64,000 nucleotides of DNA from Azolla caroliniana (lineage: Eukaryota; Plantae; Polypodiophyta): assembly GCA_043228905.1 (NCBI GenBank), contig JBHGNT010000022.1, positions 3,286,001 through 3,350,000 on the forward strand, in the 5' to 3' direction. How positions within the stretch are numbered: the stretch's first letter is position 1; every line of letters starts with the position of its first letter. Under the pieces are notes generated by a model. That model did not search any database and had not been told where the DNA came from. It worked only from the letters and a program-made list of their open reading frames with translations. The position numbers and the translations under genes were made by a program. Positions 5,301 to 60,600 of this stretch are shown in pieces.

Positions 5301-7005
5301 AGCTAAGAAAGCCCTCATCTCTGCAAATGAAAAACTCTGTCGATCCACCCGTGAAAAGAACACCGTAAGCGGATTCGGCTACAACAATTATATGGCGTAC
5401 CATTACGCCTTTATGATGAAGGTAGCGACAGTACGGGAGCTGGAAACCTTTTCGGAAGCCGCGAAGGACCCGTGATGGATCGAAGCAATGAACGAGGAGA
5501 TGCAGGCACTACGGAAGAACGAGACATGGGATCTCGTTTCCACCTCACCACACAAAAAGGCGATCAGATGCAGATGGATCTACAAGGTGAAGTATAATGT
5601 TGATGGCTCCGTAAACCGCTACAAAGCTCGACTCGTAGCGAAAGGATACGCTCAGACGCATGGCGTCGACTACGAAGAGACCTTTGCCCCGGTGGCAAAG
5701 ATGACGACGGTGCAGACCGTAATTGCGCTTGCCGCGGCAAAAGGGTGGCACCTCCATCAAATGGACGTCAAGAACGCCTTTCTACAAGGCGAATTAGAAG
5801 AGGAGGTGTACATGATACAACCACCCGGCTTCAACTCGAGCACCCATCCGAAAGTTGTATGCCGACTCAAGAAGCCACTCTACAGCCTCAAGCAAGCACC
5901 ACGTGCTTGGCATTCGAAGATAATGCAATATCTTCATCAAATCAGCTTCCGTATGTCATAATTGGACAACTCCCTCTACATATGAAGCGATTCCACAAGT
6001 CCGACCATCATCATTTAATATGTGGATGACCTAATAATTGGAGGTGAGCATCTAGTCGAAATCAATAAAGTCAAATCCCTCCTTTCCGACAAATTCGAGA
6101 TGACGGACATGAAGGAGCTCCACTACTTCCTCGGCATCGAGGTAATTCGAACTCTGGCCAAAATCATAATTTCTCAACGGCACTACATCCTCAACTTGTT
6201 ATACAAGTTCGGTATGGCTGAGTGCAAATCCGCGGCAACCCCGCTCGATCGCAATCTCAAACTCGATGCGAACTCCGGCACCAAAGTGTGTGAGCCGACT
6301 CAGTATCGGCAACTCATCGGGAGTCTCATCTACCTCACGATCACATGACCCGATCTCAGTTATCCGGTCGGTCTCCTTAGCCAATTCATGCAAACACCGC
6401 GTGATACTCACTTGGATTGCGCTAAGCGAGTTCTACGATACATGAGCGGCACAATGGATTGCGGCATCCTCTACAAGACCACGATGCCAATACGACTCGA
6501 GGGGTACACCGACGCCAATTGGGCCGACTATAAAGCTGATAGAAGATCAACCTCCGGATTTGTTTTCTCCCTCGGCAGCGGAGCAATATCCTGGAGTAGC
6601 AAGAAGCAGCCTATCATTGCTCTTTCGAGTACGGAGGCGGAATACAGGGGCGCAGCCGTAGCTGCGTGTGAAGTCGTATGGCTCAAGAGGATTTTGAAGG
6701 ATCTGGGTGTACCCATCAAGGATTCGACCTCCCTTTACTGCGACAACATGAGCAGTATCTATCTGGCTCGGAACCCGGTGTTCCACGCGCGGACAAAGCA
6801 CATCGAAGTGCACTATCACTTCATTCGAGAGCGCGTTCTAGCTGGCGATGTCGACCTACAACACATTAGCACCAATCTTCAAACGACTAACATCTTCACT
6901 AAAGCCTTAGGAGCCGACAAGCTATGGCAATTCATGACCGATCTCGGATTGACGATCCCTGACCTGCCAAGCTTGAGGGGGAGTACTGAAGAGACTATGC
7001 AATAA
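2339..7005 (+). pseudogene. Copia gag-pol polyprotein pseudogene
   Basis: ORF fragments 2339-2728, 2427-2981, 3379-3942, 4951-5475, 5488-5961, 6022-6348 and 6388-7005 in Copia domain order. Confidence 0.93.
4558..4982. mobile_element. solo LTR (unrelated family) nested in Copia integrase
   Basis: TGTTG...CAACA termini; 5-bp TSD TCGAG (4553-4557 and 4983-4987); removing it restores the RVSRDV motif seen intact at ~63495. Confidence 0.9.
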
Positions 7006-8005: not shown

Positions 8006-8062
8006 CCCTACTTCTAAACCGTGTTTGATTATTGCAGCATCAACTGCTATCCCTTTGTAGAT

Positions 8063-10028
8063 ATGGTTCATCCCACCCCTGCCCTTACTGTTGTAGAAAA
8101 CAGCCGCATCGACGACAAGCCCTGTGTAGATATGGCAGAGCCAACCCTAGCCCTTAACCCTGGTCTCAGTGATGAAGGCAACAGCAGCGTCAAGGGCAAC
8201 CTAGGTGGAGGTATGGCATCGCCAAGCCAGAATTCTCACCCAAGCCCTAGCCCTAAATCAGAACAAAACCAAAGCCCTAATCCCAACTCCAACTCTAACT
8301 CCACCCTTGACCCTAATGGTGATGCAGGAAGCATTATTGTGAGCACTTCCACCAACACAAAGGAGAAGAAAGTAGCCCCACGCAGGTTTGTAAGGCAACA
8401 AGTACCGGATACAATCACCAATGACCCATCATTACTTGCAGCCATTGCAATTTTGCCTGCCCATTACAACTTGGAAATCCCAAAGACAATTTGGCGCCTG
8501 CGCCAGTCGAAAGCTAAGCGAGTTGCCCTCCAATTGCCAGAAGGTCTCCTCATGTTTGCACTTGTTTTATCTGATATCCTGGAGAAATTTGCCGATCTTG
8601 AAGAATGCTTCGTATTAGGTGATGTCACATATGGTGCTTGTTGTGTTGATGATTTCTCAGCTTTTGCACTGGGCGCTGACTTTTTGGTACATTATGGGCA
8701 TAGTTGCCTTGTTCCCATTGATTCATCCATGATACCTTGCTTGTATGTGTTTGTTGAGATTCACATTGATGTACTTCATTTAATCGATACAATTAAGCTC
8801 AATTTTGATCCACATGAGAGGGTGGCGATGGCGGGGACAATACAATTTGGACCAGCTGTTCATAGTGCAAAGGCTGCCCTTTCAGGTGTACATTTTGAAT
8901 CGGATGTGATTGTACCGCAAGAAAAGCCACTCTCGGGTGGAGAAGTACTGGGTTGTACTGCCCCTTCTATGCCACGCAACTCTGTGGATTCTTTTGTCTT
9001 TGTCTCAGATGGTCGCTTTCACATGGAAGCCTTCATGATTGCCAACCCTAGCATCAAAGCATTCAGGTTGGTTTATTTTGAAACCAAAAAACAAAATACA
9101 TTAGGTTTTTGCCCAAAAAGAAAGCTAAAAGGCAGTTTTAAATTGTAATTTATATAAGGACTTTGGAATTCATCAAAATGAAAACATTGTCAGACTAACA
9201 TGTTTGAAGAAGTTTAAAGCCTTGTTCTATTTATAAATTGTGAATTTACTCAAGGTATACAAAGTATCAAAATATGAATGTTTTTGGTTTAGAAATTCTT
9301 CAAAGTCCCATCTTTGCATCAATTTGAATATTTTATTTATGCATCATGAATTCATGACATAAAAATCTATCAAACTTTGAAAGTATTTCGTTCTAGGATA
9401 TTTTTAAAGATGTGGATGTAATTTACGATTCAAAGATGGTTTACAAAATATGGAACCAAAAGTTATGCTTAAAATTCCATATTGGTTCAGGTATGACCCT
9501 TATTCTAAGGTTTTATCTCTGGAAGAGTATGATCACAAGGGCATGAGAAGTGGTCGAGAGAAAGCTATCAAGCAAGCGAGTTCTTTTATTGGTAAGCAAT
9601 GGGGGGTTGTCTTAGGTACCTTGGGGCGTCAAGGAAACTTGAAAGTGTTATCCCATGTGGAGAAAAGGCTTGCTTCTCGAGAAATTGAATACAATGTATT
9701 TCTGGTATCGGAACTATCTCCGACAAAGATATCGTTGTTTGAAGATTCCATTCAAGTATGGGTGCAAATTGCTTGTCCAAGGCTATCAATTGATTGGGGA
9801 GAAGCATTCACTAAGCCTCTTCTCACACCTTATGAGGCAGAAGTTGCTCTTGGCTTTGTTGATGCACCTTGGAGCCGTAGCTGTTCTTCTTGCTCGTGCA
9901 ACGAAGAGAAGAATGGTGATGGTAATCACAAAGAAGAATACGATGTCTATCCAATGGATTACTATGCGAGAGATGGTGGACCTTGGAACTCTTCTTATGC
10001 ACCAAAACCACGGCCAAGGAAAGTGTAA
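8063..10028 (+). CDS. DPH1: diphthamide biosynthesis protein 1 (2-(3-amino-3-carboxypropyl)histidine synthase subunit); exons 8063-9066 and 9491-10028
   Basis: motifs VALQLPEGL, GDVTYGACCVDD, VHYGHSCLVP, GEVLGCTAP, DGRFHME, LGTLGRQG, QIACPRLSIDWG, YPMDYY; GT-AG intron joins AFR|YDPY in frame; start could be 8063 or 8132. Confidence 0.93.
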
Positions 10029-24608: not shown

Positions 24609-27600
24609 TCAACTCCTCCCATAAGGCGCTATTGTTGACACAGGTGGACCATACGAATATCTCCACTCATTGCAAGCTGCACATTTATCAATAGCAATGC
24701 CATTTTGAAGCGTACAAAATTTGCAACTCCAAGATGATGCCACCGCAGAAACTTTTTTGGCATTCAGCTCCATGTTTGAGACATTCTCCGATACTGCTTG
24801 TCCGAGTTTCCTTTTCATGCACCAATAATACAAAAGGAAATTAGTAAAGAAAAATACCACAATTTATATAGGAATTTGGTAATAGGTTTATATACAATGC
24901 TGTTGGGAGTTTGGTTTCCTCTATGATTTACTACCACAAATTCAGAGGAAAATTGAAGTATTATTTGTATTTCATTTGTTTGCTCCATGCAAAATAAAAT
25001 TCAACTGAAAAATTTAAGAAATGTTTGATATTTTGTAGTGAATGAGGGGGGACACCTTTTTCCGGAGCACCCATTCAACTTTGGCTCATCACAAGCTGCA
25101 CATTTGTGAAGAGACTCCACATTTTCTAGTGTACAAGATTTACATGTCCAACTTTGTGCATCTACCCAAGCCCGAACTGTTGAGCATGCCGCACATATTG
25201 TAGCAAGAGGCTGTTCCCAAACAACAATAAATATAGACATATGACATTGGCAGAAAACATTGTTCACAAAAACGATAAATCAGATAGTTAAATAAGATCA
25301 ACAGAAAAGTCGTTCAACAACGAAGTTAGATAGACCAGGCTCAGTCAGGAAATTTGTCGCATACAACAAATAGAAACATAAGATCACCAGAAATGTAGAT
25401 GTGGTCTCACCACCCAGCCATAGACATCTATAGCATGTCTCTCACCATAAGTAAAGTAACCCAGGCTTTTTTAGGCCTTCAAGCTATCTTACACTATTAC
25501 AAATATCGATTTTACAACCATATAAGTCTGTCCATCCATGATCCCTAGACTAGTAAACTAATCCTATGGGACATTTTGATGACCACAATCCTAGGAGCTA
25601 AAGTTCCAGAGACTTTTGACATATCCTAGCTATCTATGATTTTAGGGTTCCATAACCTATGAATTTGCCCAACCATTTACATTTAGTAAGTATATGAGTT
25701 TTATTATTTTTTCCTGTTCTTTTCAGGGTCTAAAATTATTTTCCATCAATTAGTCTTTTTTACCAATTAGCTGTAGAGGTTTCACACCACATAAGTCATC
25801 CCTGATTCCTAGGATGCTGAATTTGTTTATTCTTCTATCTACATTAAATACTAGAGTGGATTAATCATTCAGGACATGGGAGAACCACTTTTATTCTTAG
25901 ATATATAATTCTTTCTGTTCTCACATTACTTACCGGGTTCAACAATGTGCATGCAGTACACTCCCATGAGGAGAAGTTGGAGGTCAATGCCACAGAATGA
26001 TCTTGATTACTACTACTAACACTTGGATTCACTGATACTTTGCTAGTAATGGATGGGTTTCCATGACACTTTGCACACTCTCTTTCTTCGGCTTTCTGTT
26101 GTCCATCCGATCCAAGGGTATCCGGAGCACCGCACCAAAGATCATCTCTCAACCTTCTTTCAGCTGCCATGGCCGCAGCTTGGATAGGGCTCAAAGCTTT
26201 CATGATAGCATTATCACCACCTAGCCTCCTTGGACCATTCGACATGAGTGAACCTGTATGAGCACGTTTTTCAGCAGCTCCAAGAAGAGCATTTCGCATA
26301 TTATATGATGGAGGGTTGTGAGTGCGGCCCCCTAATCGAGTCCCTCGAGCATCGAACCCTTCACCAGTGCCAGAGATGCCTTTTGCTATCAATTCTTCAC
26401 ATTCCTGCTAAGTATCAAAATATAAGACATTACATGCAACGCATAATGTGATGCATTCTCTCGTCTTGTTCCCAAAAGGTAATGATGAATTAACTGTAGA
26501 TGAATTTAGCAATAATCAATGAATATTAACAGGAGCTGATATGAGAGCTATATACGTCATGCAAACATTCTTAAATAAATAAAAAACAAAAGCACAAAAA
26601 AATTTCATCCCCAAATCTAGATTTTGCCAATCATTTCAGTTTATGACTCTCAAAATAGTAGGGCTGCTTAGGCAGAGCCAGTGTGAAGAAAAGATAAGAA
26701 CAACTATGTTTTGATACCAAGACAGAAGCTTTAACAATATCTTTCCAAACTAGACTTCTCAAAACAACAGGATGCCTTTTTAGAGAGAGGAGTGCTAATA
26801 AGCTTTCAAGGGAATGGGCACGGGCACCCGTTAGGTGACACCTTTGCACAACCCTAGTTTCCTAATCAAACTATATTAGTATTAAAAAATGAAATGAAAA
26901 TACCTTGGTAATCTCATCAAGCAGTTTGTAGAATTTTGCGTCATGAGGTCCATGATCATTATGAACCAATTCATGCAACATGGTGCCCACTAAGGACTCA
27001 TAGGGCAAGAATTCTTCTTCTCTCCCCGGCTTCCGGAGTCGTATTCTAACCTCCTTACCAGCCCCAATATTCAACCCTAGAAGAGCAGAATTTTTTGGGC
27101 TATTCATCACCAGAAGAAACCATTGATCGGTTATTCTATCATCAGCTAGCAATAACAAAGTTTGGAACCACTTTTACACAGGGAAAATCCATGTTTCAGA
27201 TAAAACAGTAGGTAATTTGAATCACTGGAAGAAACCGTTGATCAGTAATTCTATCATCAGTTAGCAATTAGCAAAGTTTCAAACAACTTTTACATGATAA
27301 AACCCATGTTCCAGATAAAAGTTTAGGCATACAGAATGAAAAAAACAAGCGCGTTTTAGATGTGCAAATCACAATGCGATACACTGTCAATTATTTGCAT
27401 ATGTAATGATGAATTAACATTTAGAAGCAGATTTGGTAGCACAGTAGATATGGTTCAAATATTCAAATGAAAAGCTAGATTACAAGGGTATAAATTTGAT
27501 ACCAAGAAAAAGCACCCATTACAAGAGCCAAACATATAGTTCAATTACATAAAAAAAAACCTCAATTGCATAGAATCAATGATATAATTCAGAATTCAAA

Positions 27601-28217
27601 TATATGAAAGAACAAAAAACTTGATTACAAGAGCAACGATATAGTAAAATAAAAATACACTACAAGAACAACAATATACTGAAAAAAACTTCCTTGCAAA
27701 TGATAAACGATATAGTTCAAGTGCATAAAGTGTAAATAGGACAAACATAAACAAAGATCGAATATGAATGAGATCAGGATATCGTTCAAAAGCATCAAAT
27801 CAAAGATATATCCAAATACATAAATCCAAAGAGATTGATCAAACATATAGGGACAAAGAGATAGATCAAATACAAGGAGACAAATATATAGTTCAAATGT
27901 CTAGGCCCAAAGATAGATTCAAATCCAAAACAGCAATATATAGTTCACATATATACAGCCCAAGACACGTTCAAAACACACAAACGAGAAAGACACAACC
28001 ACGAAAATAAAAAATTTTGAGAGTGGATGAGATGAAAAGCTTACTAGAACTCAGAGAGAAGTAGAACTCTCCATTTTCTCTTCCTCATGATGGGCTGCAC
28101 CTGCTTCGCAATCTGTTCGAGAAGTGCGCGAGCATCGGAATCTCTGGACCGTCCAATCGTCTTGATCTCCCATACTTTGGACAAATCTCCACCTTCAATC
28201 GATGACACAACCGGCAT
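24609..28217 (-). CDS. WSS1A: Wss1-like WLM-domain DNA-protein crosslink metalloprotease with C-terminal RanBP2-type zinc fingers
   Basis: exon 28217-28045 ...IAKQVQPIMRKRKWRVLLLSEF; exon from 27099 YPKNSALLGLN...TMLHELVHN...HDAKFY (HExxH); GFDARGTRLGG; SPIQAAAMAAERR; three W.C..CT..N fingers; C-terminus WRYSYGPP. Confidence 0.9.
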
Positions 28218-28596
28218 TCTCTCGCTCTCTCTCTCTCTTCCCCTTTATCTACTTGGTTTGTCTGATCTTCTTTTCTCTCTCTCCACACTCTATACCTCTG
28301 ATCTTCTTCTTCTTCTTCTTCTTCTTCTTCTTCTTCTTCTTCTTCTCTCTCTCACTCTCTTTATCTATCAATCAATTTATCAATCAATCTACTCTTGTTT
28401 CTCTAATCTTCTTTCACTCTCTACACTTTATTTCACTGATCTTCTTCTTCATCTACCCTATCTATCAGTATATCTACTCTGTTTCTCTCTCGTTCTCTAT
28501 CCTCTGTTTTTCTTTCTCCCTGCTCTGTTTCTTCTTCTCTTTTCAAAAAACTTGTTTGTTATTTACACACATAAGTAAGTACATACATATATTATA

Positions 28597-32331: not shown

Positions 32332-33162
32332 TTAGCTTGTAAAAGCCAATGATGGAAGACGTCGAGTTTGTCCACGATTCATAGTCTTGGCGACAGGCAC
32401 ACGGGTAGCATTTCGTCGAAGGTGTGAGAGTGTGAGGAAGTGAACAAGAATGTCCTCGTTCTCATTCGCATCGTCCAGGATCGCTTCGTAATGGGGATAA
32501 ACGCTAGGGTCCAAGTAAGCCTTGCAAGACAACACGAAGAGGTAAGGCAACGATGGGACCATGCTAGAAAGTTGGACATCATCGACGAGAGATGGTATAG
32601 ATGATGTTATCCTAGCGAGCCGGAGGCCATCACGTAAGCTCATCTTGGCTTCCTCCTTGACGATGTGTAGTGCGGATGCGGCTAGGTCAACCGAAGTGTG
32701 ATCAAGCGTGTTTCCCATGTTTGTTGTCAATGGAGGAATGGTGGTGTCCATGGTAACCCCTTTGGGAGCTTCATCTTGTATTGCGGGTGGTGATAATGAT
32801 GATGGAGTACCAACCATGGGTTGTGGTGGGGTCGTTGATGGTGATCCGGTACTTATAGTGGCGGCTTCTTCGAGGAGCCTCCGCACCGCGATGTCGGCCT
32901 TGGTTCGGATGAATACAAAAGGCGGTCTCCCAAGATGGAGAGCGTGTCGAGCAATTTCAAAGTCGAGGGTGTGGAATCGATCACTCACAATGAGGATGAG
33001 ATCGAACGCGTAGAGCTTCTTGTCAATGAAAAATGTGAGGGATGGGTGTCCGACAACGCCCGCACCAGGGAAATCCCACAACAATATTCCAGTCGGAAGG
33101 CTACTGCTATTGTTATATGCCTTCACTTCTCTGGTGCCTTCTCCTCCCATCATTGCTCTATC

Positions 33163-33200
<38 letters not shown>

Positions 33201-34266
33201 GGAAAAAACATTCATCATTAAGTGTCTTGTACCCCCATTGGGTTGATCCTTTAGGGCTTCATATCCTTACCATGCACCACATGACAAAGTTGTTCTAGGG
33301 TTTTTTGAGTTATTAAGGGTAACTCCAATTACTTCTCTTATAATCACTTGCATGGACACCTCCCATCCCATTTAAAGAGAGAAGTAACACTTTGCAATTT
33401 CTCTCTTTGAATTAGGGTTTCAAAGTTTTCCAATGCACACAACACTAAGAGGTAGGTCACTCGGGAATCTAGGAATTTCATATTACATATGAAGAATATA
33501 AGGTTTCTATGTGTATTGGAAGATATGGGTTTTGTTTTGACTTGCAGTGAGACATGCTATATATCCAACCCTTCTTTGATTAGGTTTCTAATTTTTGGCA
33601 ATTGTTTTGGTCCCCCTAAGGACCGATTTGTCATGAGCCAATAGTACATCCATCTTTATCTTGTGATCCGACTATGATGAAATGCAATTGACACCATAGA
33701 GACTCAATTGTGGTTCTTGGCAGTCATTAACCGACAATGCACTATAAAATTCATCTATGAACGGATTTAGATATATTGAGGGTGATTGATTAACTATATG
33801 ACATGCAATCAAATATTTATTATTATGAACAATATATTATTGATCATGGAAAAAATAAAACATCCCAAGAGAACAATTATAGGTACCAAAGGAATGTTCA
33901 AGTTAAACATGCATATGTGACATTTAAAATTGCCTTTGTGGTATCCAACCAAAATTTCCATCAACTAAAAACCATATGAGAGATTTGGGGGCCTAGGGCA
34001 AGAAATATCTCACTAGTATCATCATCATTGAAATGGAGAAGCCCATTGATTAACGATGACTTCCCCACGCTCTTCGCTCCTACCACAGCTACATTGAAAT
34101 CATTTGCTTTCATTTTGTAGAAGGTCTTTGCATCAAAGACCATTTGCTCCAAGTTTTCAATGCTAATAAACCGTAAAGACTCAGTCTTGTCTATTGGTGG
34201 TTCTGGTGGTCGTGTGGCTTTCTCAACAAACTCTACAAACCATCTGATAAGTGACAGAATACCCAT
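32332..34266 (-). CDS. immunity-related GTPase (IRG/IIGP)-like P-loop GTPase, ~360 aa; exons 34266-34014 and 33161-32332
   Basis: G1 NVAVVGAKSVGKSSLINGL; G3 LWDFPGAG; LYAFDLILIVSDRF; G4 FIRTKAD; FVLS G5 region; motif order and spacing follow IRG proteins (GKSSFINAL...WDLPG...YDFFII...RF...FVRTKVD); phase-1 GT-AG intron keeps the frame. Confidence 0.8.
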
Positions 34267-35162
34267 CTCTATCTGAACCTGGTAATGTCTTACCACAAGG
34301 TCAGCACAATTACTCAGCCATGGACAAAAATCATGCCCATCCCTAAACTTGGTATAATGTCTTCTGACAATACCTGCATAATTACTCAACCATGGAATGT
34401 ACAAAAATCCTTCTCATCTTTAAAGACAAAGCCAGGTGGGATAAAGACAAAGTTACTTCACCAATTGGCAATGAGTGTTCCAATCATTTCTGCTCTGCCA
34501 AAAGCATATACACAGGATAAAGCATAAACCACATGAGATTGCTTCATTACAAAGCAAACATGAGCAAATAACGATTCTCAAGATTCAAATCTAGAGTTTC
34601 AGACTACTGATAATGTATAACTATTGTCTTAAAATATCATCATCATACTCTTGAGGCATATGGAAAATGGATTAGGAGCATTTTGAGTTCATCCATTCCA
34701 TCATCATCATTCAAACAAATTATCAAATTGAACTTTTAACATATTATCAAATCAAACTTTTATTCTTGACTAGTCTCCTACAATTGCAAAAACTGAAATC
34801 AAGAAAATGTCTTTCATGTGTTGCTCAAAGTTACTATTACTAGTGAAAGAAGACCAGATAATTGGAATCATAATAAATAGTTTAATTTTAAAAACCGTAG
34901 CTCCAATTATCAAAATAACTGGAATATTGCCAATCAATGAAGCTGCATTGAACTGCACTCAAAATGTTTTGTTCCAATTACTATGAATTGAGCAGAACTC
35001 CCAGCAATTAAATTCACAGTAATAGAGTGAGCCTTGAAAGATGAGACAAAACTGAAACCAAACACCCATCCGCATCATCGCATTACTGTACAGACTCGGG
35101 CTTTTTCTCTCCACACAAAAAACCCAGTTTGTCTTTGTGTGCTTCAGTTTCATTCAATCAAA

Positions 35163-38100
35163 TCACTCGTCTCCAAACGTTGTCTTCTTGCCTACGAACA
35201 AGTCCATGTAAATCAGCAACATCATATATATGTATTTTACTTATTCTACAGATGTACGTGTAAAATATACAGTACCATTTTACATAAATATGCAAATACA
35301 TCATGTTATGTCTAGTTAGATATAGACATGTTATGCAGTAACAGTTTACATAAATATGCATTATACTTCTATTAAAATGTTAGATATAGATATGATATGC
35401 ACAAATGCAAGACAATTAATTACATACACATACATATAGGTCATATATTTCATCAGATACACATGTATAAATATTTGCATTCATATTTACTTATATCCTT
35501 GTATACATGCACTCTTATATATCAGATATAAAACTGCACATAGTCTTTTACCTGAACCAAGATATAGATATGATATGCACAAATGCAAGACAATTAATTA
35601 CATACACATACATAAAGGTCATATATTTCATCAGATACACATGTATAAATATTTGCATTCATATTTACTTATATCCTTGTATGCATGCACTCTTATATAT
35701 CAGATATAAAACTGCACATAGTCTTTTACCTGAACCAAGATATAGATATGATATGCACAAATGCAAGACAATTAATTACATACACATACATAAAGGTCAT
35801 ATATTTCATCAGATACATACGTATAAATATTTTACTTATCCTTGTATGCATGCACTCCTACATATCAGATATAAAACTGCACATAGTCTTTTACCTGAAC
35901 CAGCGAGACTCACTTTCTCCCTGGGACTAAATCCTCTTCCACCACCAAATCCTCCCCTTCCTCCCCTTCCTCTCCTTCCTGTTTATATATGATGCAAGGA
36001 GCACATGAATAACAATGTTTTATTTGTCTCTAAAACATACTACTTTCCAAGTGAAAAGGACAATCGTCAGTTTTCATTCAAAATAGGACTATACTCTAAA
36101 TCCAGTTACTATTTCCTAATGCATGTGTTACATGGCATGTTAGAGTTCTATTTCCTAATGCATATGTTACATGGCATGTGAGTTCATAATGTAGAGAACG
36201 GTGTTTATCTTTTGTAGAGTAAAGTAGGAATCTTATACCTCCTCCATCACTGAAATCCCCTCTACCACCACCTCTTCCACCACGGAAACCACCACCTCCA
36301 CCTCCACGGCCACCAAAACCACGACCACCACCTCCACTACCTGGTGCAGGTGCTCCACCTGCTTCTTCAACCATCAATGACCAGCCCTCCAAACTCGATC
36401 CATTGTACTCAATGGCACTTGAAAGACCTTGTTTATCTTTGAAATCAATATATGCAAACCTACAACATATCCAGATGTATTATTTTAGGGTATACTATAT
36501 GCTTCTCCATTCTGAATTTTGAAACAGTCTCTATGCATTATAATTAACAGAATTATGTCTTGATAATACATAATAGAAGAGAAGGATAACACTATCGCAC
36601 TGCCTGAAGATTAGAGAAGAGATTGAATTTGACTAACCCTTTTATGTTTCCAGTCTCCCTGTCTGTTGGTATTCTGATTTTTTGGACTCCACATTTACTG
36701 AAGTGCTCAGTCAATGAATTGCGGATCTGCAAAATATATACATGCATGTAATTTGTCACAAATATGGGAAATTGTGAGGCCGACTTAGCAGGCAAAGGAG
36801 CAAGAGACCCATGAAATGAACATAGATATGTCTGTATGTACCGTGTCTTCATCTTGAAACTTGTCGAAACCCCTCACATATGCCGTTGCGTCAGAACCAA
36901 ATCTATTGCCTCTGGAAAAATGGTTAAAAAAAACTTCACATAAGTAGTATTCCTTAAAAAGGGAAGCTAAAATGCACAGGAAGCAGGATGCACTCATGAG
37001 CCATGATAGAAATTGTAATTCCTTTTTACATTTCATACAAATAAATAACTCAAATGATTATATAACTCAAATAAAATAACTCAAATGTTTATATATTTAT
37101 TGAAGCACTAAGAAAAAATATATATATATATACCCAGCAGGAGTACCGAAGTCCCTCTTTCCTTGACTTCCTGGCGTGTTAGTATAAGCACGTTCTCGTG
37201 CTAAATCCACAAAGATTTCACGGCCAGCAAGCATCTCTCCTGACTTTTTGCAAGCCTAATAAAGATAAAACCCATCTCCTTACCACTCACTGCTATAAAT
37301 TAGAAATTCAAATACAATGTTTTTAAATGTCATCCTACTTCCTTATATTCCTGGCACTCATTCATGTGGCTCAATTAATTTTCAGAACGTTCGAATAAAA
37401 TAATCATACCTTATTTGCTCCATCTTCAGTGTTGAATTCTACGTGTCCAAAACCACGAAATTGACCTTCTCCATCCATTGCGAGGCGTACTTCTTTCACT
37501 TCACCAGCAGAACTAAAAAATGCTTTGCTGATCAAATTGAAGCAAATATTAGTTCATATGAATATAACCCAAAACCATGCTCAAATGTATTAAACCCTGA
37601 AAGAATAAGCAGAGGCACTCAAAATCTAAAATTCAATATATAAATCCCAATAACACTGTAAAAATAACTTACACAGATTCTTCATCAACACTCCATGCCA
37701 AATTCTTCACAAATACCGTCTTGCTTCCTCCACCACCAGGGGTAGCTGGAGCCGGAGTAGTTGGCTTCAGCAAAAACATTGATGAAGTTCAGAGAAGTCA
37801 TAACATAATACAGTCAAAACTTCAATCAAAATAATAACTCAATATAGTCTTACCTGCTTAGTTTGCTCCTCTTTCTTTGTATTACCATTAGCAGGCTGCA
37901 AAAAGCAAAACAATAAAACTTCAAACAGTCCCTGACGCTACAAGTAAAAAACCCAACATAAAAAGAAGAAAATAATACAAATACAAACAATAATAATAAT
38001 AATATTACCTTTTTCGCCTTTGGTTCATCCTCATCAGAATCATTCTCATCATCATCATCATCACTTTCCTCATCACTATCTGCTGCAGCAGCCTTGGCCT

Positions 38101-41100
38101 TTGGTTTTTCTTCTTCATCTTCATCAGAGTCACTTTCTTCTTCATCTTCAGACTCTTCATCAGAGTCACTTTCCTCTTTCTTCTTTGGAGCAACCGGTTT
38201 CGCAGCCTTAGTCAGCTTTGGTTCATCTTCTTCATCACTGTCTTCTTCATCGCTGCTATCTTCTTCCTCGCTGCTTTCTATCTTCTTTGCAGGGGGCTTT
38301 ACTGTAGGCTGCATTACATAAATGTATTGCTTACACAATATATTTGATATACAATTTCAACAATATTTTCCAATGATATCTATTTAAAGATGTCATAACA
38401 AATAGACAAATTATCACCTTGTCGTCTTCGTCATCATCATCACTGTCATCTGATGATTCATCAGAGCTAGTTTCTTCTTTCTTTGCAGACTTTGCAGGAA
38501 CGGGTTTGGCTTGCTGCAACTCCAATTAGTTGGATGGAGAACAACGCAAAATAATGTCAATTAGAAAATCGTATAAGAATGATGACAAACATCAAAAAAG
38601 AAATTTATACAACAAAATTCACAGAAATATTACAAAAACATGAGTTGAACACGTTCACAATAACTTTGCACCAATGTCCAAACAATGAAACAAAAGATAA
38701 TTCTGAATACACTAGTTACAATAGAGAATGGCTCCAAAAAAACAGGAATATAACATACAATTTGAACATTTCAATAATAGATATATCAGTTCATATTACC
38801 TCCACATCACTATCTTCAGATGAATCATCATCAGAAGAGTCCTCCTTTGAAGGTTTTCCTTTAGCAGGAGCAGCCTTGGTTGCTGCCACTTTCGTCTTTG
38901 CAGGCTGAAGCATTATTGTTTACATCAATACAATTTAAAGGATCAAAAGAAACCGAACACAAAAAAAAACCTTGATTGATCATTTTTCTTTACCTCTTCA
39001 TCACTATCTGAATCGTCTGACTCATCTGAACTTTCAGGCTTTGCAGCAACTTTAGTGGGTGGAATCTTAGATTTGGAAACTGGTTTAGCAACAACCTTGG
39101 CAGGCTAAAAGTAACAGTAACAAAGCTCAATACAATGAAAATCAAACAAAAAATGGCATAAATGAATTTGGCAGTAGTATATAATTGTAAAAACAACTAT
39201 CTATCAAAGACTTGAGAAATCTTACTTCTTCATCGCTATCAGAATCGTCCTCATCTGAAGAGCTTTCCTTTTTCTCAACTTTCTTACCATTCTTTGTTGG
39301 CACGATTTTAGGTTTCACAGTCACAGCTCCATTTTTAGTTCCGTTCTTCACAGGAGTCTGAATATATAACACATAATCTCATTCTCCTCATTATATACAA
39401 TATATTTCAAAAGCTATTCCAATAATATTAAAATTTCTCAACATATATTATTCTGAGACAGAATGTCCCTACCTAAATAAAGACTTTATTATAACATTAC
39501 AGATGATGATTCAAGCATTTAATCAACATGACGATATTTGAAGATATACATACCTCTTCTTCCGATGAGTCATCAGAACTCGACTCTTCAACTTTAGCCG
39601 ACTGTAATTCGGAATAATAAGAAGTGTAAGCATAGAAAGAACCAACGTAAATAAACACCTTATCAGAAGTATGACTACAGCCCAAAAGCAAACGCAAATA
39701 ACATCTTACCTTCTTCTTGGTAGGTTCCTCAGCTTTTGATTTTGATTTTGATTTTTCAACCACATTCTTCACAGGCTAAATCAAATAATCCAATATGTAC
39801 ATACAATATAAACATCAGGATAAACAAAAACCAATCAGTAAGATTCTTGTATCTCTAACAAAAAATGCAAAAAACATAAGCAATGAAGAAAATCAAAGAG
39901 ATTAAGTAAGTTGTTAATTATGCAACATGAAGATTTACAATTTTTCAGGTAGACTGTTAATTTGTCATTTTGGATTTACTTCAGGGCTTACCTTGGCTAC
40001 TTTCTGCTTCTTTGATGACTTCTCCAACTCGGGCTCCTCCAGGCTTCTTTTCCCACCTTTTCAATATACAAATCACAGCCCAAAACTAAGACTCGGGCAA
40101 GAAATGAAACAAAACATTAACTCACAAATGATCTTTTCCATCACACATTCTTCGCATTTAACACATTCAATGTGTGACAAACAAGTAAGAGAGTGAGCAA
40201 TTTCGCATTGTCAAATTAACAAAATTCAGTAAAAAAAAACTTAATGTGCGTTTCTCCTTCATGATTTTCTCTTGAGAGGAAAGGGCCCCTCGAGGATTCC
40301 TCTCTCTTCCTTTCCTTCGTGCTGTTCCGTGCGTAAAGCCTCACAACAACATCATAATATCACATCAAATAGATTCCTGCCTCTCTACTACATGCGTGGA
40401 ATAACAAGGTTTACTGTTACAGTTTCCTATGGATAAGGAAAGGAAACCCCCATGATTGATTACACAAGCAGAGAAAACAAAAGTGTCCACTCTCATTCAG
40501 GATTTCTTATGTAGGAAAGTGGAATTTCTTGGCTCTCCATGGTTTTATCACATGTAACAAACGAGTGAAGGTTATATTATACTCTCAAAGTGAACAAGAT
40601 TGTGCGCTATTATTAACGAGCTAAAGACCCTAATTTCCCTTTTCACAAAACAAACAAATACAGTCGCCAATTTCCTTCAGCATTTCTTATGTAGGAAAGT
40701 GGAATTTCTTGGCTCTCCATGGTATTATCACATGTAACAAATGAGTGAAGGTATATTCTCTCAAAGTGAACAAGAATTGTGCGCTATTATAGTAAAGAGC
40801 TAAACATCCTAATTCTTCAGGATTTCTTAAGTATGAAAGTGGAATTTCTTGGCTCTCCATGGTACTATAACATGTAACAAATGAGGTCAAAGTGAACAAG
40901 AATTGTGCGCTGGTAGTGAAGAGCTACAGATCCTAATTTCTGAGTTTCTAAGAAATTGTGTGAGCTTCTAATTTCCCTTTCCTCAAAAAACAAACAAATA
41001 CAGCGCAGCGTCTCTTCCTTAAACACTTACTGCGTGTGTTAAAATAAATTTTAACAAAAGAAAAAACAACAGTTTGAGCAAAAGAAAGAGAGACTAATGC

Positions 41101-45728: not shown

Positions 45729-48700
45729 TGTTGGAAGTAATGTCGTCTGTGCGGAAGATCTTGAAGCACTCGATTCCTGTTTATTCTCCTGCGTATGACA
45801 GAATGTAGGTCGTTGCAGAGAGAGAGAGAGAGAGACACACACACAAAAGAGTTTCTTATTTCATAAAGCAACCATACAACAACCAACCCCACAAAGAGGT
45901 TACAAGGTCACTATATATAGTGACTGACTTAGGGCAACTACCCTTTATGCTAATTACACAAATGGCCAAAACGGGATAGTGTGAATACGTCCATTATACA
46001 CATGTATTCGACACTCCCCCGTAATGGGCGTATACATGGGTTATCTAAGATTACAGGTATAGACTTAGGTTCTCGGACATATCAGCTTTGTTCGAGTCGG
46101 CAGGGTCCGAAGGCAGAAGACCGAACTGGTCGGGTCGGAACAGTTGAAGCCGATCATTAAGGAACTGATGTCGGTTGTCGGGAACCATCCTGCTCTGTGT
46201 CCGGCTCTAACCGGACTGGTTTGCCGTTACGCCCATCTGATGCCGAAGAGACCGAAAACGGTCTGCCGAAAGACACTTGGTCATTCCATCTGCGACATTG
46301 TCGGTTGTGGATATTTTCTCTAGACCGATTTTCCCTGAAATGACGCAGTCCCGAACAAAGTGATATCGAACGTCGATATGTTTGGAGGCGTTGTGGTGAA
46401 CCGGATTTTTTGACAAGGCAACAGCACCTTGACTGTCGCTGTAGACAACTGGAGCCGAGTCATGGTCGACTTGTCGAAACGTGTGCGCCAGCCGACCGAG
46501 CCACAAAGCTTCTTTTGCTGCGTCGGACGCAGCTACATATTCTGCTTCGGTCGTTGAGGTCGCTGTGCACTCCTGAAGTTTCGACTTCCACGAGATTGCT
46601 CCATTGCCGAATTTGAAGCAGTATCCGGTTGTTGATTTCCGACTGTCTATACAGCCGGCGAAGTCCGAGTCGGTGTAACCGACTACGCCTGAGGTTCGGT
46701 TCGGTCCGAAAAGAATGCCATGGTCTTTTGTGCCAGCCAGATATCTGAACACATGCTTGACTGCGTTCCAATGCGATCGGCCAGGATTGTGCATAAATCT
46801 GCTAACGACTCCTACGGCATGAGAGATATCAGGCCGTGTCGCGACCATCAGGTACATAAGGGAGCCGACTGCCGGTGCATACGGTACCGACTTCATATCT
46901 TCCCCCTCCGGACCGGATGTCGGGCAGTCTCGCTGAGAGAGCCGAAGATTCATAGGGAGCGGGGTTGAAGCAGATTTGGCTGATTGCATGTTGAAGCGTT
47001 CCAAGACACGTCCGATATAGTCGGTCTGAGACAAAAAAAGGTGTCGTTTGTCGCGATGCCGACTGATCTTCATGCCGAGTATGTGTCGTGCCGGACCGAG
47101 ATCCTTCATGGCAAACTTCAATCGCAGTTGCCGAATGAGATCGGCAAGTTCGCCCGCGTGGCGTCCAGAAATTAGCATGTCGTCCACGTAAATGATGAGG
47201 AAGATGGGTGATCCATCTTGAGCTGTGTTGGTGAAGAGACAATGGTCCTCATCGCTTTTTGAGAAGCCGATCGATGTGATGAAGTCGTCGAACTTCTTGT
47301 ACCATTGTCGCGGTGCCTGTTTGAGGCCGTATAGACTCTTCCTGAGTCGGCAGACTAGATGTTCTTGGCCAGTCGCCACGAAGCCTTTTGGCTGCTCCAT
47401 ATAAATTTCTTCGTCTAGATCACCATGGAGGAATGCTGTTTTGACATCTAGCTGAATCAGCTCCAAGTTGTCGGCTGCCACTACGCCGAGTAGGAAACGA
47501 AGGGTTGTCATTTTCACCACTGGTGAAAAAATCTCGTCGAAGTCGACGCCGTATTCTTGTCGGAAGCCCTTCGCAACTAGTCTGGCCTTGTACTTTGGGG
47601 TGGTCGAATCAGACGTCTCTTTTAGTCGATAAACCCACTTGCAAGGAAGAGCACGTCGGTTCCTAGGTAATTCGACCAGATCCCAAGTCTTGTTTGCCCG
47701 AATGGAGTGCATTTCCGACTCCATCGCCAGATGCCAGGTGGCTGAATCGACGGATGTCGATGCTTCTTCGTAAGACGTCGGTTCGCCGGCGTCGGTGAAG
47801 AAAATTCCAGGAGAATACCTCTCCGGAGGTTGCGACAGTCTCTCGGATCGTCGAGGCATGATTGGACTGGTCGCATCGGGTATCGTGGTCGGATGGTCCG
47901 AAAGCGGATTGTTCTGCTGTGCCGAGTCGGAGTTGTCCGAGTCGGTAGTGTAAGGTTCAGCTACCCGTGAAGCTGACCGTGTGTTGAGAGCGGGGCCTTC
48001 TTGAAGGGTCGGCACATCGGAAAAGGTTACCCTTCGGACTTCGATCGGTTTTTCGACTGATGGATTCATGGCCGACTCGTTGAACACAACGTCCGAACTT
48101 CGAACGATTTGTCTGCGTTCGGGGTCCCAGAGTCGGTATCCCATTTCGCCGTTGGATCCATATCCAAGGAAAATGCATTTCCTGGACCGAGGTGCAAGTT
48201 TTCGGCGATCATCTTTCGGAATAAGGGTGTACGCCTCGCATCCGAAGATCCTCAGCTTGTCGTAATTCGGCTTACTGCCGATCCATAGTTCCTGAGGAAT
48301 TTGAAGTCCTAGAGGTCTACTTGGCGACATATTGATTATGTGTACTGCCGTGAGTAGAGCCTCTGCCCAGAAGCCATCCGACAGTCCGGAGTGTTGGAGC
48401 ATGGAAACTGTCCGTTCTTGGATTGTCCGATTCATGCGTTCGGCAATCCCGTTTTGCTCCGGACTGTGTGGTGCCGTAAATTCTCGTCGGATGCCGCGTT
48501 GTCGGCAGAATTTGACGAATTCTTCAGATTTAAACTCTCCCCCATTGTCTGTCCGAAGGCATTTCAGCTTTCGGTCGGTTTGATTTTCTACCATAGCGAG
48601 CCAGTCGGTGAAGATCGAGAAGACCCGATCTTTGGTGCGAATTGGATAAGCCCACACCTTTCGAGTCGAATCGTCAATAAAAGTGACGAAGTAAGAGGCA

Positions 48701-51179
48701 CCACCGAGAGACTGATGCGGCATTGGGCCACAGACGTCCGAGTGGACCAAATCGAGAGGTCTCGATTCTCTTGGTGCTGATGTCGGGTGTGATGTGGCTG
48801 CTTGTTTGCCATACTGGCAATGCTCGCAGAATTGATGGTCGGAGAAGGAGAGTTTGGGGATGTATCCGGCTCTAGATAGGTGCGTGATGCCGGCCTTGCT
48901 GAGGTGTCCTAATCTTCGGTGCCATAGTGATGACACAGGAATATCCACCAAAAACAGGTTACCCTCTCTGAGCGTAACATGTAACGGATACAGGGAGTGT
49001 ATCTTGGGTCCTCTAGCAAGCAGGAGGTTCCCCCTGTGGAGTGTCCACCCTCCCGAAGAAAAACCGGCACGAATGCCGTCTTCATCTAGTTGTCCGACTG
49101 AGATCAATGGCCGTGAGAGCTCGGGTACATGTCGGACATTGTGGAGTACAAGTGTAGAGCCACCTGCAAGGTTGAGCTCTACTGTGCCGATTCCGATGAT
49201 GTCACAGTGTTGCGAGTTACCGACCCGAACTGAGTCGGAGTGACGGATCGTGTATTGCCGAAATTGGGATCGATGAGGAGTCACGTGAAACGACGCGCCC
49301 GAATCCAAGAGCCATGTGCTCGATTCTTCAGTCGTGAGCAGAACTTCTGAGCCAACTGGATTTTCGATTGATAGTATGTTCGGGTCGTCTGGTAGCACAT
49401 CAGCTGAGAAGCTGACGTAATTGATCTCCTCATGCCGGCCACTCTTCTTGTTGTTCTTGTTCTTGAGTGCGCGGCAGTCGGCTTTGATGTGTCCGGGTTT
49501 CTTGCAGTAGTTGCAGATTCGGTTATCCCGTGACTGGCTCCGTCTTCGCTGATTGTTCGGCGGCCGTGAGGAATCTCTTCCTCGTATGTTCGATCGGTCT
49601 GTCGAACCTTGTACTACGTAAGCGTCGTCTGTTGAGTCTTTGGCGAAAGACTTTCTCCGAGCTGCTTCGGTCAGGATTGCGCTCGTGACTTCGGAGTATT
49701 TGACAGCCGTGGTTGACGCGTTGCACACGGTTGTGACGAAAGTTTCCCATGATGAGGGAAGGCTGCTCATGAGTATCATTGCTCTGAGTTCATCCTCGAT
49801 TGCCGTCCCCTGTGACGAGATTTGGGAGCTTATGCTTTCGTACTCATTGAGGTGTGCTTGAACCGAGTCGGATTCTTTCATCCGCAAGTTGTAGAGGCGC
49901 CGGATCAGAAACATCTTTGTTGCGGCGACCTTCTTTTCGTAAGTGTCCGACAGTGTTTTCCACAGTTCAAATGCTGTCGTACACGATTGCACCGTAAAGT
50001 ATACCGATTCCGATAGGTGCATCCGAATCGTGGCGCGGACGATTCTGTCCAGCTTCTGCCACTCAATTGGTTTGTATCCTTCTGGAGGTTCTTCATTTTC
50101 GATGGGATCGATTTGCCCCTTGACTATGAGATAGTCTTGCATTTGTTCCTTCCAGAAGTTGAAGTTCGATCCATCGAACTTTCGTAGACTCATTTCTGAC
50201 GAGCCGGATGTTGATGCCATCAAATTCGGTTTTGGTTAACGAAGCTCGGTTCGGAGTTGACTACGGACCTTGTTGGAGTGCAGCCGGTTGGCTCACCCGA
50301 TATTGTTCTAGTCGGGTTTGAACCCGAGTCGGTTCGGCTTCGGAACTTGCTCGAATTGACTTCGGTAGCTTGAGGGACAGAGCCGACTGGTCTTCCCGAA
50401 TGTTGCCGAGTCGGAGTGAGCCCGGTTCGTTTCGGATATATATGCCGAATACCGATTATTAAAACCGATTATCTGAACCGATTTTGCTTCGGTTGACTGC
50501 AGCAACGAGAGAGACGGATCCAACTGATCCTCCTAAATGTCGATCAGCCAGATGAAGCATGAATTTGGGGTTGCTGTCTTGAGACCGATCTGCACCGAGT
50601 GGTTACAACGAGCGGCGAGCAGCGTTCAGTGACCTTTTCGGATGCCGTTTAACCGAGTGGAGCACGATCGTGTCAATGTTGAACAAGGGGATTTCACCTC
50701 GAGCGGTTACGATCACTAGGAACGGAGTACAACCTGCTGGCTTACTCCAAGCAAGATAATCTAACGCGATGAGATGCAAACCTGGTTTTTTTCTTCTTCT
50801 CCTCTCTTCTTCGAATGACGCAGGAAACCGAATGCAGAGACGACGGCCGACAGCGGATTGAGGGACCGACTGCTGTGCAGGCTCTGATACCAGATGTTGG
50901 AAGTAATGTCGTCTGTGCGGAAGATCTTGAAGCACTCGATTCCTGTTTATTCTCCTGCGTATGACAGAATGTAGGTCGTTGCACAGAGAGAGAGAGAGAG
51001 AGAGAGACACAAAAGAGTTTCTTATTTCATAAAGCAACCATACAACAACCAACCCCACAAAGAGGTTACAAGGTCACTATATATAGTGACTGACTTAGGG
51101 CAACTACCCTTTATGCTAATTACACAAATGGCCAAAACGGGATAGTGTGAATACGTCCATTATACACATGTATTCGACA
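45729..51179 (-). mobile_element. intact young Ty1/Copia LTR retrotransposon
   Basis: 285-bp LTRs 45729-46013 and 50895-51179 differing only in the GA/CA microsatellite; TSD GTCTC both sides; PBS at 50881-50892; PPT at 46014-46020. Confidence 0.98.
46207..50223 (-). CDS. Copia gag-pol polyprotein, 1338 aa, uninterrupted
   Basis: gag, CNYCKKPGHIKADC knuckle, WLLDSGASFH protease, HHCC and DDE integrase (RTDNGGEF), RT YVDD, RNaseH KHIDVRYHF. Confidence 0.97.
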   Translation of the reverse strand: MMASTSGSSEMSLRKFDGSNFNFWKEQMQDYLIVKGQIDPIENEEPPEGYKPIEWQKLDRIVRATIRMHLSESVYFTVQSCTTAFELWKTLSDTYEKKVAATKMFLIRRLYNLRMKESDSVQAHLNEYESISSQISSQGTAIEDELRAMILMSSLPSSWETFVTTVCNASTTAVKYSEVTSAILTEAARRKSFAKDSTDDAYVVQGSTDRSNIRGRDSSRPPNNQRRRSQSRDNRICNYCKKPGHIKADCRALKNKNNKKSGRHEEINYVSFSADVLPDDPNILSIENPVGSEVLLTTEESSTWLLDSGASFHVTPHRSQFRQYTIRHSDSVRVGNSQHCDIIGIGTVELNLAGGSTLVLHNVRHVPELSRPLISVGQLDEDGIRAGFSSGGWTLHRGNLLLARGPKIHSLYPLHVTLREGNLFLVDIPVSSLWHRRLGHLSKAGITHLSRAGYIPKLSFSDHQFCEHCQYGKQAATSHPTSAPRESRPLDLVHSDVCGPMPHQSLGGASYFVTFIDDSTRKVWAYPIRTKDRVFSIFTDWLAMVENQTDRKLKCLRTDNGGEFKSEEFVKFCRQRGIRREFTAPHSPEQNGIAERMNRTIQERTVSMLQHSGLSDGFWAEALLTAVHIINMSPSRPLGLQIPQELWIGSKPNYDKLRIFGCEAYTLIPKDDRRKLAPRSRKCIFLGYGSNGEMGYRLWDPERRQIVRSSDVVFNESAMNPSVEKPIEVRRVTFSDVPTLQEGPALNTRSASRVAEPYTTDSDNSDSAQQNNPLSDHPTTIPDATSPIMPRRSERLSQPPERYSPGIFFTDAGEPTSYEEASTSVDSATWHLAMESEMHSIRANKTWDLVELPRNRRALPCKWVYRLKETSDSTTPKYKARLVAKGFRQEYGVDFDEIFSPVVKMTTLRFLLGVVAADNLELIQLDVKTAFLHGDLDEEIYMEQPKGFVATGQEHLVCRLRKSLYGLKQAPRQWYKKFDDFITSIGFSKSDEDHCLFTNTAQDGSPIFLIIYVDDMLISGRHAGELADLIRQLRLKFAMKDLGPARHILGMKISRHRDKRHLFLSQTDYIGRVLERFNMQSAKSASTPLPMNLRLSQRDCPTSGPEGEDMKSVPYAPAVGSLMYLMVATRPDISHAVGVVSRFMHNPGRSHWNAVKHVFRYLAGTKDHGILFGPNRTSGVVGYTDSDFAGCIDSRKSTTGYCFKFGNGAISWKSKLQECTATSTTEAEYVAASDAAKEALWLGRLAHTFRQVDHDSAPVVYSDSQGAVALSKNPVHHNASKHIDVRYHFVRDCVISGKIGLEKISTTDNVADGMTKCLSADRFRSLRHQMGVTANQSG

Positions 51180-57659: not shown

Positions 57660-60600
57660 CATGGTTATAACATACGTAGCATACCATACACGTGCAATAC
57701 GTATGTTACGTATTTTATAAGTACTCTAAATTTTTATTATAAGTTCTTTGAATACGTATTTAAAGGTTGAATACGTTGAATATGTGGTTGAATACGTCAA
57801 ATACTTGAACACGTTACACCATTGATGTTGAATGCAAAGATACTTGGAATTTGATTAGTAAATACAAATTATCTTTATTTCCCTTGGATAACACATGGTT
57901 ATCTATGTTTCAACTTTCAATATTTTAAAATGAAAGTGGAGATTCAAGAACATAATTGAAGTTTGAATCAAAACGCATATTATTTCAACCCTCATAGAAA
58001 ATGAATAAAGTGATAAAAAAACTATTAGAATTTAAAACTTTCTTCATACTCATAGTAAAAACCAACAATACATTATCTCCATGCAATTTTCGATTATGTT
58101 TCTTCTTCTACATCATCATTAGAAGATTTCGTTGTTGTACCATCATAGTTGTCCACATAATCGCTATCAGAAGATGAATCAAGTATGACATTGTCAATGT
58201 CTTCATCCTCTTGATCTCCATCATCATTACCATATTCAACATTGCAAGCCTCAGTTGTAGTTTGTCAAGTATTTACCCTTCTTGTACTTGCAACTCTCGC
58301 ACAAACTCTTCTAATAGTGCTAGAACTTGACCCCACCAATCCTTCATCCACTATCATATTGGCAAACTTAGATCTACTTCGAGTAACCCGACCAATATGC
58401 ATAGCCTCTGCTTCCTCAAAATATGCTTGTGCGGCTTGAGTATCAATATTGGTTGTTGATGGAGGCATTTCAGCAATCTTGTCAATGTCTATCTCATCAG
58501 GATTTACCTAAATCAAATAATATTTTGGTATCATAATCATGATTCATAATATTTAAACCATAACCAATTAACAAGGTTCGTTAATTAACCTACAAATGTT
58601 TTTTTAAACATCAAGTGTCAAACATGAGTAAGAAAGATGTAGACTTGCATTGGAAGACCAACATGAGTTTGAAAGCGTCAAACAAGCCTTACGTTTTCTC
58701 TAACATATACTAATCTCTCCACTTGTTTCACTTTCAAACGGTTCCTCCTTTTTGTATGTGCCAATGCATGTGCATTCCAATTTCTTTCGACAGCTCCAGA
58801 AGAGCAATCCTATGACACAAAATATTAAGCAAACAATACATGTCATTGTAGAAGATTAATAAAATTGAAACATTAATAAAAAATGAACTATAATACCTGA
58901 GACTATACTCTACAAGCTAATGATTGTAGTAAGGGCACATTGTCCCCATATCTTTCCCACCATGAAACAGGTTTACATTTTGCAATGTGTGACTTTGATA
59001 GTTCATTGCTAAATCGGCCCACACCATTTCTATACATGTCAAATTGATCTTGCAAGATTTCACATTCATCTATAGAATATACCTTTTGAATATATGCAAG
59101 CCATCCATCAGTCATCTCTGCATTCATAATAATTGGTTGATCTTTGGGCTTCCATAAAGGATGCAAAATATGTGCAACAATATGAATTGGCTTTTTTGAA
59201 CCACGACCAACGACAATCAAAACATTCCAAAACCTCTTTATATCTGCATTAACATTTGGCAAACTTAAATCAAAAGTGGAAATCAGTTACCAAAATATGC
59301 ATAATATAGACAACAACAATGATTCAAAGAAATGAAAAAGATGCAATAAACAACAATTGTACATACTACATACATAGTGCATAGAAATAATAATATTAGA
59401 ATAGAAACGTATTACTTGTCCTTGTTTAATGTGTCTTCTCTCGCTCCTCGTTGCAACGTGTCTCTAGCCCTCCTCATGAACTCATAAAGTAAGCCCATTG
59501 TAGATCCTTCACGATCAGTTAACCGCAAAACAAAAAACAATGGACACATAATTGAAATTACAATCATAATTGAAGGCAAAGTAGAGCTATCTTGCACAAT
59601 GGACTTCACCTTGATAACATTTGGCTTTTTGGAGTCACTCCAATACTCCCAATAGTTACTAACCATAGTTTGTTCAAGGGCTCTCCAAACTCTTGCCAGC
59701 CTCTCAAGGACAATAAGAATATAGCCAAATCGAGTGGCACTTGGCCTAAGGAGCACAAGAGATGAATAGTTGCTGAAATTTTTTCGTGCATTCCTTTTCT
59801 TGGTGAATAGTCTAACCACATAATTTGCTCTCTTGTGCACTCCTCGAACCCAAGACAACTTCCCAATGTCCTCTAGCAATAAATCTAAACAATGTGATGC
59901 ACAAGGAGTCCATACAAGGCTTGGGAATTCAGTCTCTAGAATGTGACCCATGCTAACACAATTCGATGCATTGTCAGTGACAATTTGCACCACATTTTCT
60001 ACTTTTACTTCATTTACTATAGTTGATAGCATTTCAGCCAACCATGGACCATCGACCCTTGTAGAAACACCACTACAATCAATAGTTTTAAGGTACAAAG
60101 TGCCATAACAACATGAGACTAAAATATTCACAAGTGCACGCTTGCTAGTGTCAATCCATCCATCTGAAAGTATGGTAACTCCATATTTTGGCCAAAGGGC
60201 TTTCACATTTTCCACTTTGTGTTGCACATTCAAATGCTCTTTCTTTAAATATTTAACTCTTAAATCATTGTAGGCAATACCACTATACTTTTCCCCAATA
60301 TCAAAGAAAGCTAACAACATGTTCCTCCAACATGACATTTTCAAAAGATTAAATGATAGATTACCTTCCACAATGCATCTAACCAACATTGTGTTTGCAT
60401 GGTCTTTCTTGATCAACATAGCAGCACTTGATCCTCTCCTTATTGTGCTTTGAGTGAGACTTTTTCTTCTTGAACCTTTTGTATCTTCAATATCAATAGG
60501 AATTTGGTCTATTGAATCCTTCTTAGATGAGGCACTTATGCTAGCCATTGAAGGTTGTGATTGGAACATTGAATCAACCATTGAATCCACCATGCCTTCT

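Follow-up and report, generated by a model that had tools for sequence, protein, structure and literature searches.

We have identified an intact gene for a short GTPase of the immunity-related GTPase (IRG) type in the fern Azolla caroliniana. It is located on the minus strand of a 64,000-nt stretch of DNA (assembly GCA_043228905.1, contig JBHGNT010000022.1, positions 3,286,001 to 3,350,000), called the window below, and consists of two exons whose join encodes 360 residues without a stop codon. Its product has an IRG-type G domain with equivalents of residues K82, E106, T108, D126, R159, D164 and D186 of mouse Irga6, lacks the C-terminal helical domain and belongs to a clade of fern proteins. 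We give a probability of roughly 0.55 to the reading that this intact single-copy gene makes a short, membrane-anchored, self-activating GTPase that works through G domain dimers and labels a membrane for other factors.

The original prediction, made from the DNA letters, described a spliced frame of ∼360 codons with G1 GAKSVGKS, G3 WDFPG and G4 RTKAD; all of these are present and the frame is open across the join. Exon 1 (34014..34266, 253 nt) carries residues 1–84 plus one base, with a Met-Gly start, an amphipathic helix, a Pro-rich linker and the G1 P-loop. A phase 1 GT..AG intron of 852 nt (33162..34013), in which a (CA)17 run precedes the acceptor, interrupts the G domain, and exon 2 (32332..33161) supplies residues 85–360 and the stop codon, with switch I, G3, G4, an insert, G5 and a C-terminal helix. 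An alternative in-frame AG at 33156 would yield 358 residues; an AG at 33158 would break the frame. The 34014/33161 junction, which had been put forward for checking, occurs exactly in one contig (162 nt) of run X2, which derives from a close relative with another species label (∼93% identical): the contig matches positions 33014–33161 and continues with 14 letters, 13 of which equal the end of exon 1. A second 13/14 match to these letters lies in the window at 34632, but without a GT after it. This single contig of depth 2, from a run not on record as RNA and treated as RNA by guess, supports the junction over the acceptor six bases on. Contigs of runs X1 and X2 map to exon 2 and the sequence 3′ of it, and also to the last exon and 3′ flank of the neighbouring gene, a placement that is a hint only of expression.

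The IRG/IIGP identity first proposed for the protein held in three kinds of search, each of which put IRGs first. Exon 2 alone matched Pfam IIGP (PF05049) with 33.5 bits (cut-off 24, E = 3e-8), its sole Pfam match at E ≤ 1; exon 1 alone, which contains only G1, stayed below the cut-off of every family. Full-length fern relatives scored 57–117 bits against IIGP and lower, 20–34 bits, against MMR_HSR1. Mouse IRGs made up 13 of the 15 matches when PDB sequences were searched with the fern profile (best E = 3e-25; next family 1e-4). When the model of an Adiantum homologue (predicted local distance difference test, pLDDT, 91) was submitted to Foldseek, all listed rows to rank 37 were IRGs, with a mitofusin first appearing at rank 39 and Toc34 at rank 47 (E = 5e-7 versus 3e-13 for IRGs). 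The model of exon 2 alone was poor (pLDDT 69) and had no Foldseek match at E ≤ 0.001, with IRGs heading the list. The AIG1/Toc34, septin, MMR_HSR1 and dynamin families all ranked under IIGP by profile or structure and were rejected. The window protein is a member of the IRG-type G-domain family and does not have the full vertebrate p47 build.

The C-terminal helical domain is absent: matches end no later than position 201 of 375 in the Pfam profile and 214 of 393 in a profile of animal IRGs, and the Adiantum model has only two helices beyond the last strand. At the N terminus, residues 1–19 (34210..34266) form an amphipathic helix, a predicted membrane anchor with Gly2 as a possible myristoylation site. 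The hydrophobic moment of residues 6–19 (0.81) is the top value among all 14-mers of the protein, and the Adiantum model has a helix at residues 2–18. A Met-Gly start was found in 32 of 67 short relatives, and 19 have Ser/Thr at position 6 (some rows are fragments). Under the reading that we prefer, the helix would anchor the protein to an internal membrane, perhaps aided by a myristoylated Gly2; GTP-bound G domains would then pair, switching the protein on as in mouse Irga6, and the paired domains would hydrolyse GTP cooperatively. Because the C-terminal helical domain is missing, marking and recruitment are favoured over rupture: the protein would label a membrane and recruit partners to it, candidate membranes being those around a microbe or those of a damaged or lipid-rich organelle.

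Irga6 residue numbers were taken from the alignment of the fern profile to PDB sequences. G1 is of the GKS type (GAKSVGKS, 34057..34080), with K69 at the position of K82. In switch I (EGTRE, 33127..33141) E92 and T94 align with E106 and T108, both by BLAST and by counting from a conserved Tyr; the loop is shorter by one residue and has no counterpart of T102. D114 of G3 (WDFPG, 33064..33078) corresponds to D126. The segment FFIDKK...SDRF spans residues 128–147, and SDRFHTLDF (32959..32985) holds R146 and D151, the counterparts of R159 and D164 at the catalytic dimer interface. D174 of G4 (RTKAD, 32893..32907) matches D186, and the G5-position motif LSCKA (32518..32532) has a Ser kept in 21/21 members of the fern clade described below. 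The protein thus has G1 GKS, G3 DxPG with the following hydrophobic residue, and G4 TKxD; the hydrophobic substitution in the motif is shared but not diagnostic (PMC1297648). Among the dimer-interface positions G103, E106, T108, R159 and D164 are kept, and E77, T102, K161 and K162 are not. A Pro/Thr/Ser-rich insert of 59 residues (residues 185–243, 32686..32862) is predicted to be disordered and is far longer than in relatives. It was considered as a hidden intron and rejected as such, since an X1 contig crosses it ungapped, though X1 is not recorded as RNA.

Relatives were collected by three word-index searches (6, 19 and 47 proteins among the matches listed) and by a HMMER scan of 1.84 billion representatives, with 2104 matches at E ≤ 0.001, the best 150 of which were considered, without species names. 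In an IQ-TREE phylogeny built from 82 selected rows, with fragments and duplicates (14 ids) omitted, the window protein falls within a 21-row clade with support 100/97. The clade is made of the window protein, six rows from five fern species, three EukProt rows and 11 rows without species; its species-named rows, from Adiantum capillus-veneris, A. nelumboides (two), Pteridium, Ceratopteris and Psilotum, are all from ferns. Fern proteins labelled in databases (Adiantum GOP47_0001744, L7F22_017970 and L7F22_063245, Ceratopteris KP509_21G087400, and the Pteridium and Psilotum entries of EukProt) share both the clade and the build. The Psilotum member implies, given fern phylogeny, a family as old as the ferns. 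No bryophyte, lycophyte or seed-plant member was seen among the named matches listed, with rows without species able to hide some; this agrees with the earlier remark that no such family is characterised in flowering plants, and is a hint that the family is restricted to ferns.

All 21 clade members keep the equivalents of R159 and D164. E106, T108 and D126 are kept in 10/10 canonical members. In a derived branch of 11, to which the window protein belongs, the D126 equivalent is lost in 10 (nine have Glu and one has Ser), and the switch-I pair is kept by the window protein and otherwise by one member (P0012) only. The window protein is therefore the sole one of the 11 with all three catalytic residues, and a tree with it moved out of the derived branch was rejected (P = 7.5e-5). 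In the closest labelled fern proteins G3 contains Glu and switch I is eroded, whereas Asp and E-x-T are found in the window protein; identity to the three derived-branch members with genome annotation is 51–55% over the first ∼180 residues. A. nelumboides has one canonical and one eroded paralogue (P0048 and P0004), the Azolla genome only the derived type. This nesting among proteins with eroded catalytic motifs was no part of the original prediction, nor were the missing helical domain and the 59-residue insert.

E106, R159 and D164 are required for oligomerisation or hydrolysis in Irga6 (PMC3042988), and the importance of the G3 Asp is seen with D125G in GM4951 (PMC9288484). The simplest reading of the Asp in the window protein would be a Glu-to-Asp reversion, and its switch-I residues may be there by retention or by chance. 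A Glu at G3 need not abolish activity (yeast Gtr2 carries one), so we can only infer that the other fern proteins of the derived branch are quasi-GTPases.

The window protein might itself be such a quasi-GTPase, one that binds membranes and partners, hydrolyses poorly and acts as an adaptor or regulator like IRGM or IRGQ, with catalytic residues that are leftovers or present by chance. This would fit its place among 10 relatives without the G3 Asp, its shortened switch I and the Arg found at the E106 position in the A. capillus-veneris member, the change reported for the regulatory GMS proteins (PMC3042988). On the other hand, it has all three catalytic residues, and D114 is kept in the X2 relative through a silent change. 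K69, D114 and D174 are present, so neither the loss of the G1 Lys nor the disruption of the nucleotide site known from GMS proteins and IRGQ is seen. A canonical partner that it could regulate was not found either: searches of the 523-Mb assembly with exon 2, the derived relative P0006, the Pfam profile and the canonical relative P0191 gave no second copy, a count that is a lower bound, first-look filters having been used. We consider this alternative unlikely. The derived fern branch as a whole parallels IRGM (GMS) and IRGQ in its altered nucleotide site, with one member having the same E106-to-R change, but fern proteins keep the G1 Lys and the R159/D164 pair, which are changed in GMS proteins (PMC3042988); the likeness is convergent.

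The gene could also be dispensable, under relaxed selection and heading for loss. The window protein has the longest end branch in the fern clade and a low-complexity insert, and only low-depth contigs were present in the runs examined, where depth cannot rank genes. Still, the 360-codon frame is open and the splice is kept, and six of the eight listed differences between the X2 contig and the gene are silent and fall on third codon positions, including one in the D114 codon. Exon-1 products from other samples are 83% and 96% identical, with the G1 region unchanged in the 83% one. We regard loss in progress as very improbable.

Compared with the mouse GKS-type IRGs (Irga6/IIGP1, Irgb6, Irgb10 and GM4951), the window protein has in common the G1 GKS, the switch-I E-x-T, the G3 DxPG, the R159/D164 pair, the G4 TKxD and Gly2; it differs in its missing helical domain, its single copy, the intron inside the G domain and the 59-residue insert. 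Identity to animal IRGs is 31–36% over ∼125 residues. A role first suggested for the protein was that of a defence effector, which would load onto membranes around microbes and break them in the manner of Irga6 on the Toxoplasma vacuole. The nearest solved relatives are indeed mouse resistance IRGs, switch I is fast-changing and is the loop attacked by a parasite kinase in Irga6 (PMC3042988), and the family has a patchy range with tandem copies in contigs of microbial eukaryotes (L006 and L007). However, the domain missing here is the C-terminal helical one, the gene stands alone with no array, and non-immune IRG-like GTPases occur in the algal pyrenoid matrix (PMC10927497) and on lipid droplets (PMC9288484), which makes an effector of this kind distinctly unlikely. 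A defence role in any form is kept near one in three, because its relatedness to mouse IRGs and the rapid change in switch I are offset by the single copy and the non-immune precedents. To our knowledge, plants have no interferon system.

Outside ferns the named relatives come from Trebouxia, Coccomyxa, Codosiga, Gregarina and animals, and neighbours in the Atlas from rotifer, ascomycete and basidiomycete clusters. The short build, with an N-terminal amphipathic helix, a G domain and a short helical tail, is also found in green algae, a choanoflagellate and microbial sequences. Many of these short IRG-like GTPases (Trebouxia, Coccomyxa, Codosiga and Atlas clusters, mostly of rotifers, ascomycetes and basidiomycetes) have ∼250–300 residues, 258 in Trebouxia, and share with the fern protein an often Met-Gly start, a helix, a Pro-rich linker, the G domain and a short tail; they form clades apart from the ferns, none of them a supported sister. 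Apart from the pyrenoid GTPases of chlorarachniophytes (PMC10927497), these proteins are uncharacterised.

The phylogeny suggested with the original prediction gave a firm fern clade and several candidate sister groups. A Codosiga/Trebouxia (choanoflagellate/Trebouxia) group was sister with support 87/92 in the first tree; a second one, for which 23 more rows (long branches, near-duplicates and surplus animal rows) were dropped and three added, gave no resolved sister. In approximately unbiased (AU) tests a basidiomycete-like sister (P = 0.37; P0033, so labelled via the Atlas only), green algae (P = 0.083) and animals (P = 0.30) were not rejected, and a set of three metagenome proteins, one of them encoded next to a Zn2Cys6 gene, was borderline rejected (P = 0.046). 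The data show neither transfer nor ancient retention, because these tests still allow a fungal-like, a green-algal or an animal sister. For the same reason the proposed 'fungal-type' link finds no support, and the WDxPGAG...YxFD pattern on which it was based is common to the whole family. Pattern scans, which are insensitive, found no relatives in viral contigs (0/82 stretches) or prokaryote genomes (0/255). A more far-reaching idea, which we hold to be speculative and doubtful, is that a minimal IRG defence system operates in ferns and in no other land plants, having come to them from a microbial eukaryote by inheritance or donation. Active GTPases and regulatory quasi-GTPases would have diverged within it without any tie to the GKS/GMS split of the mouse, and the window copy, of the derived type that alone was kept in its lineage, would have regained the G3 Asp and activity.

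The protein had been called undescribed, and as far as papers are concerned this stands: none on fern or land-plant IRGs was found in the literature searched, with subscription papers and supplements (fern gene-transfer tables) outside its coverage. In databases the family already has a name, since UniRef labels Adiantum and Ceratopteris members automatically as 'IRG-type G domain-containing'. The nearest literature mentions, among U-box proteins of Chlamydomonas, an IIGP domain (PMC4378952) and states that plants have guanylate-binding proteins (GBPs), which belong to another family (PMC6400534). As of 2005, no unambiguous IRG was recognised outside vertebrates and the origin of IRGs was called obscure (PMC1297648); databases now hold many IRG-type proteins outside vertebrates.

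Nearly all work on IRGs concerns mice. With the catalytic and dimer residues of Irga6 but no helical domain, this fern-wide family offers a naturally minimal form of IRG from a multicellular plant; it allows membrane defence to be tested as the ancestral job of IRGs versus a vertebrate invention, along with the contribution of the helical domain. One member of the family is present in the laboratory fern Ceratopteris, and the canonical and eroded paralogues of A. nelumboides make a pair for testing convergent pairing of enzyme and pseudo-enzyme. Should the job turn out to be housekeeping, this would still be a fern gene family that lacks a description and whose origin is uncertain.

Contamination, judged unlikely from the start, is ruled out by the intron, the neighbours, the multi-megabase contig and orthologues in fern genomes. 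The flanking genes are ordinary eukaryotic ones, among them a WLM (Wss1-like) protease (25868–28244, minus strand) and a diphthamide synthesis gene (8018–10025, plus strand), the latter with two long open frames. Upstream, a minus-strand gene at ∼34950–39200, its 3′ end ∼900 bases from the GTPase start codon, has acidic repeats, weak RRM pieces, a Gly/Arg tail and a last exon with GKKTTFGDE; we take it to be nucleolin-like. Three tandem copies of a 178-bp unit (94% matches) lie at 35382–35902, probably within its last intron. Directly upstream of the GTPase start codon there is a degenerate duplicated block of ∼70 bp (34283–34424; pieces 79% identical, spacing 72–77). Remains of Copia-type retrotransposons, one with an open frame of 1342 codons, and a DUF659 transposase-like frame occupy 2343–7002, 46210–50235, 59415–60917 and 61357–64000.

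Other loci were observed during the searches. Metagenome contigs L004–L007 carry intronless short IRG-like genes, in tandem in L006 and L007, beside an ankyrin-repeat gene, to which L005 adds a Zn2Cys6 gene. Trebouxia-like loci L008–L027, spread over many metagenome contigs, have short IRG-like genes 85–100% identical to Trebouxia-type proteins in long intron-free stretches, with 17–48 members per cluster. In the bacterial-looking L033–L035, small GTPase genes with weak IIGP/AIG1 matches stand three in a row; after them come an AAA ATPase gene and a DUF2201 gene in L033, and in L034 the row lies beside an anaerobic ribonucleotide reductase.
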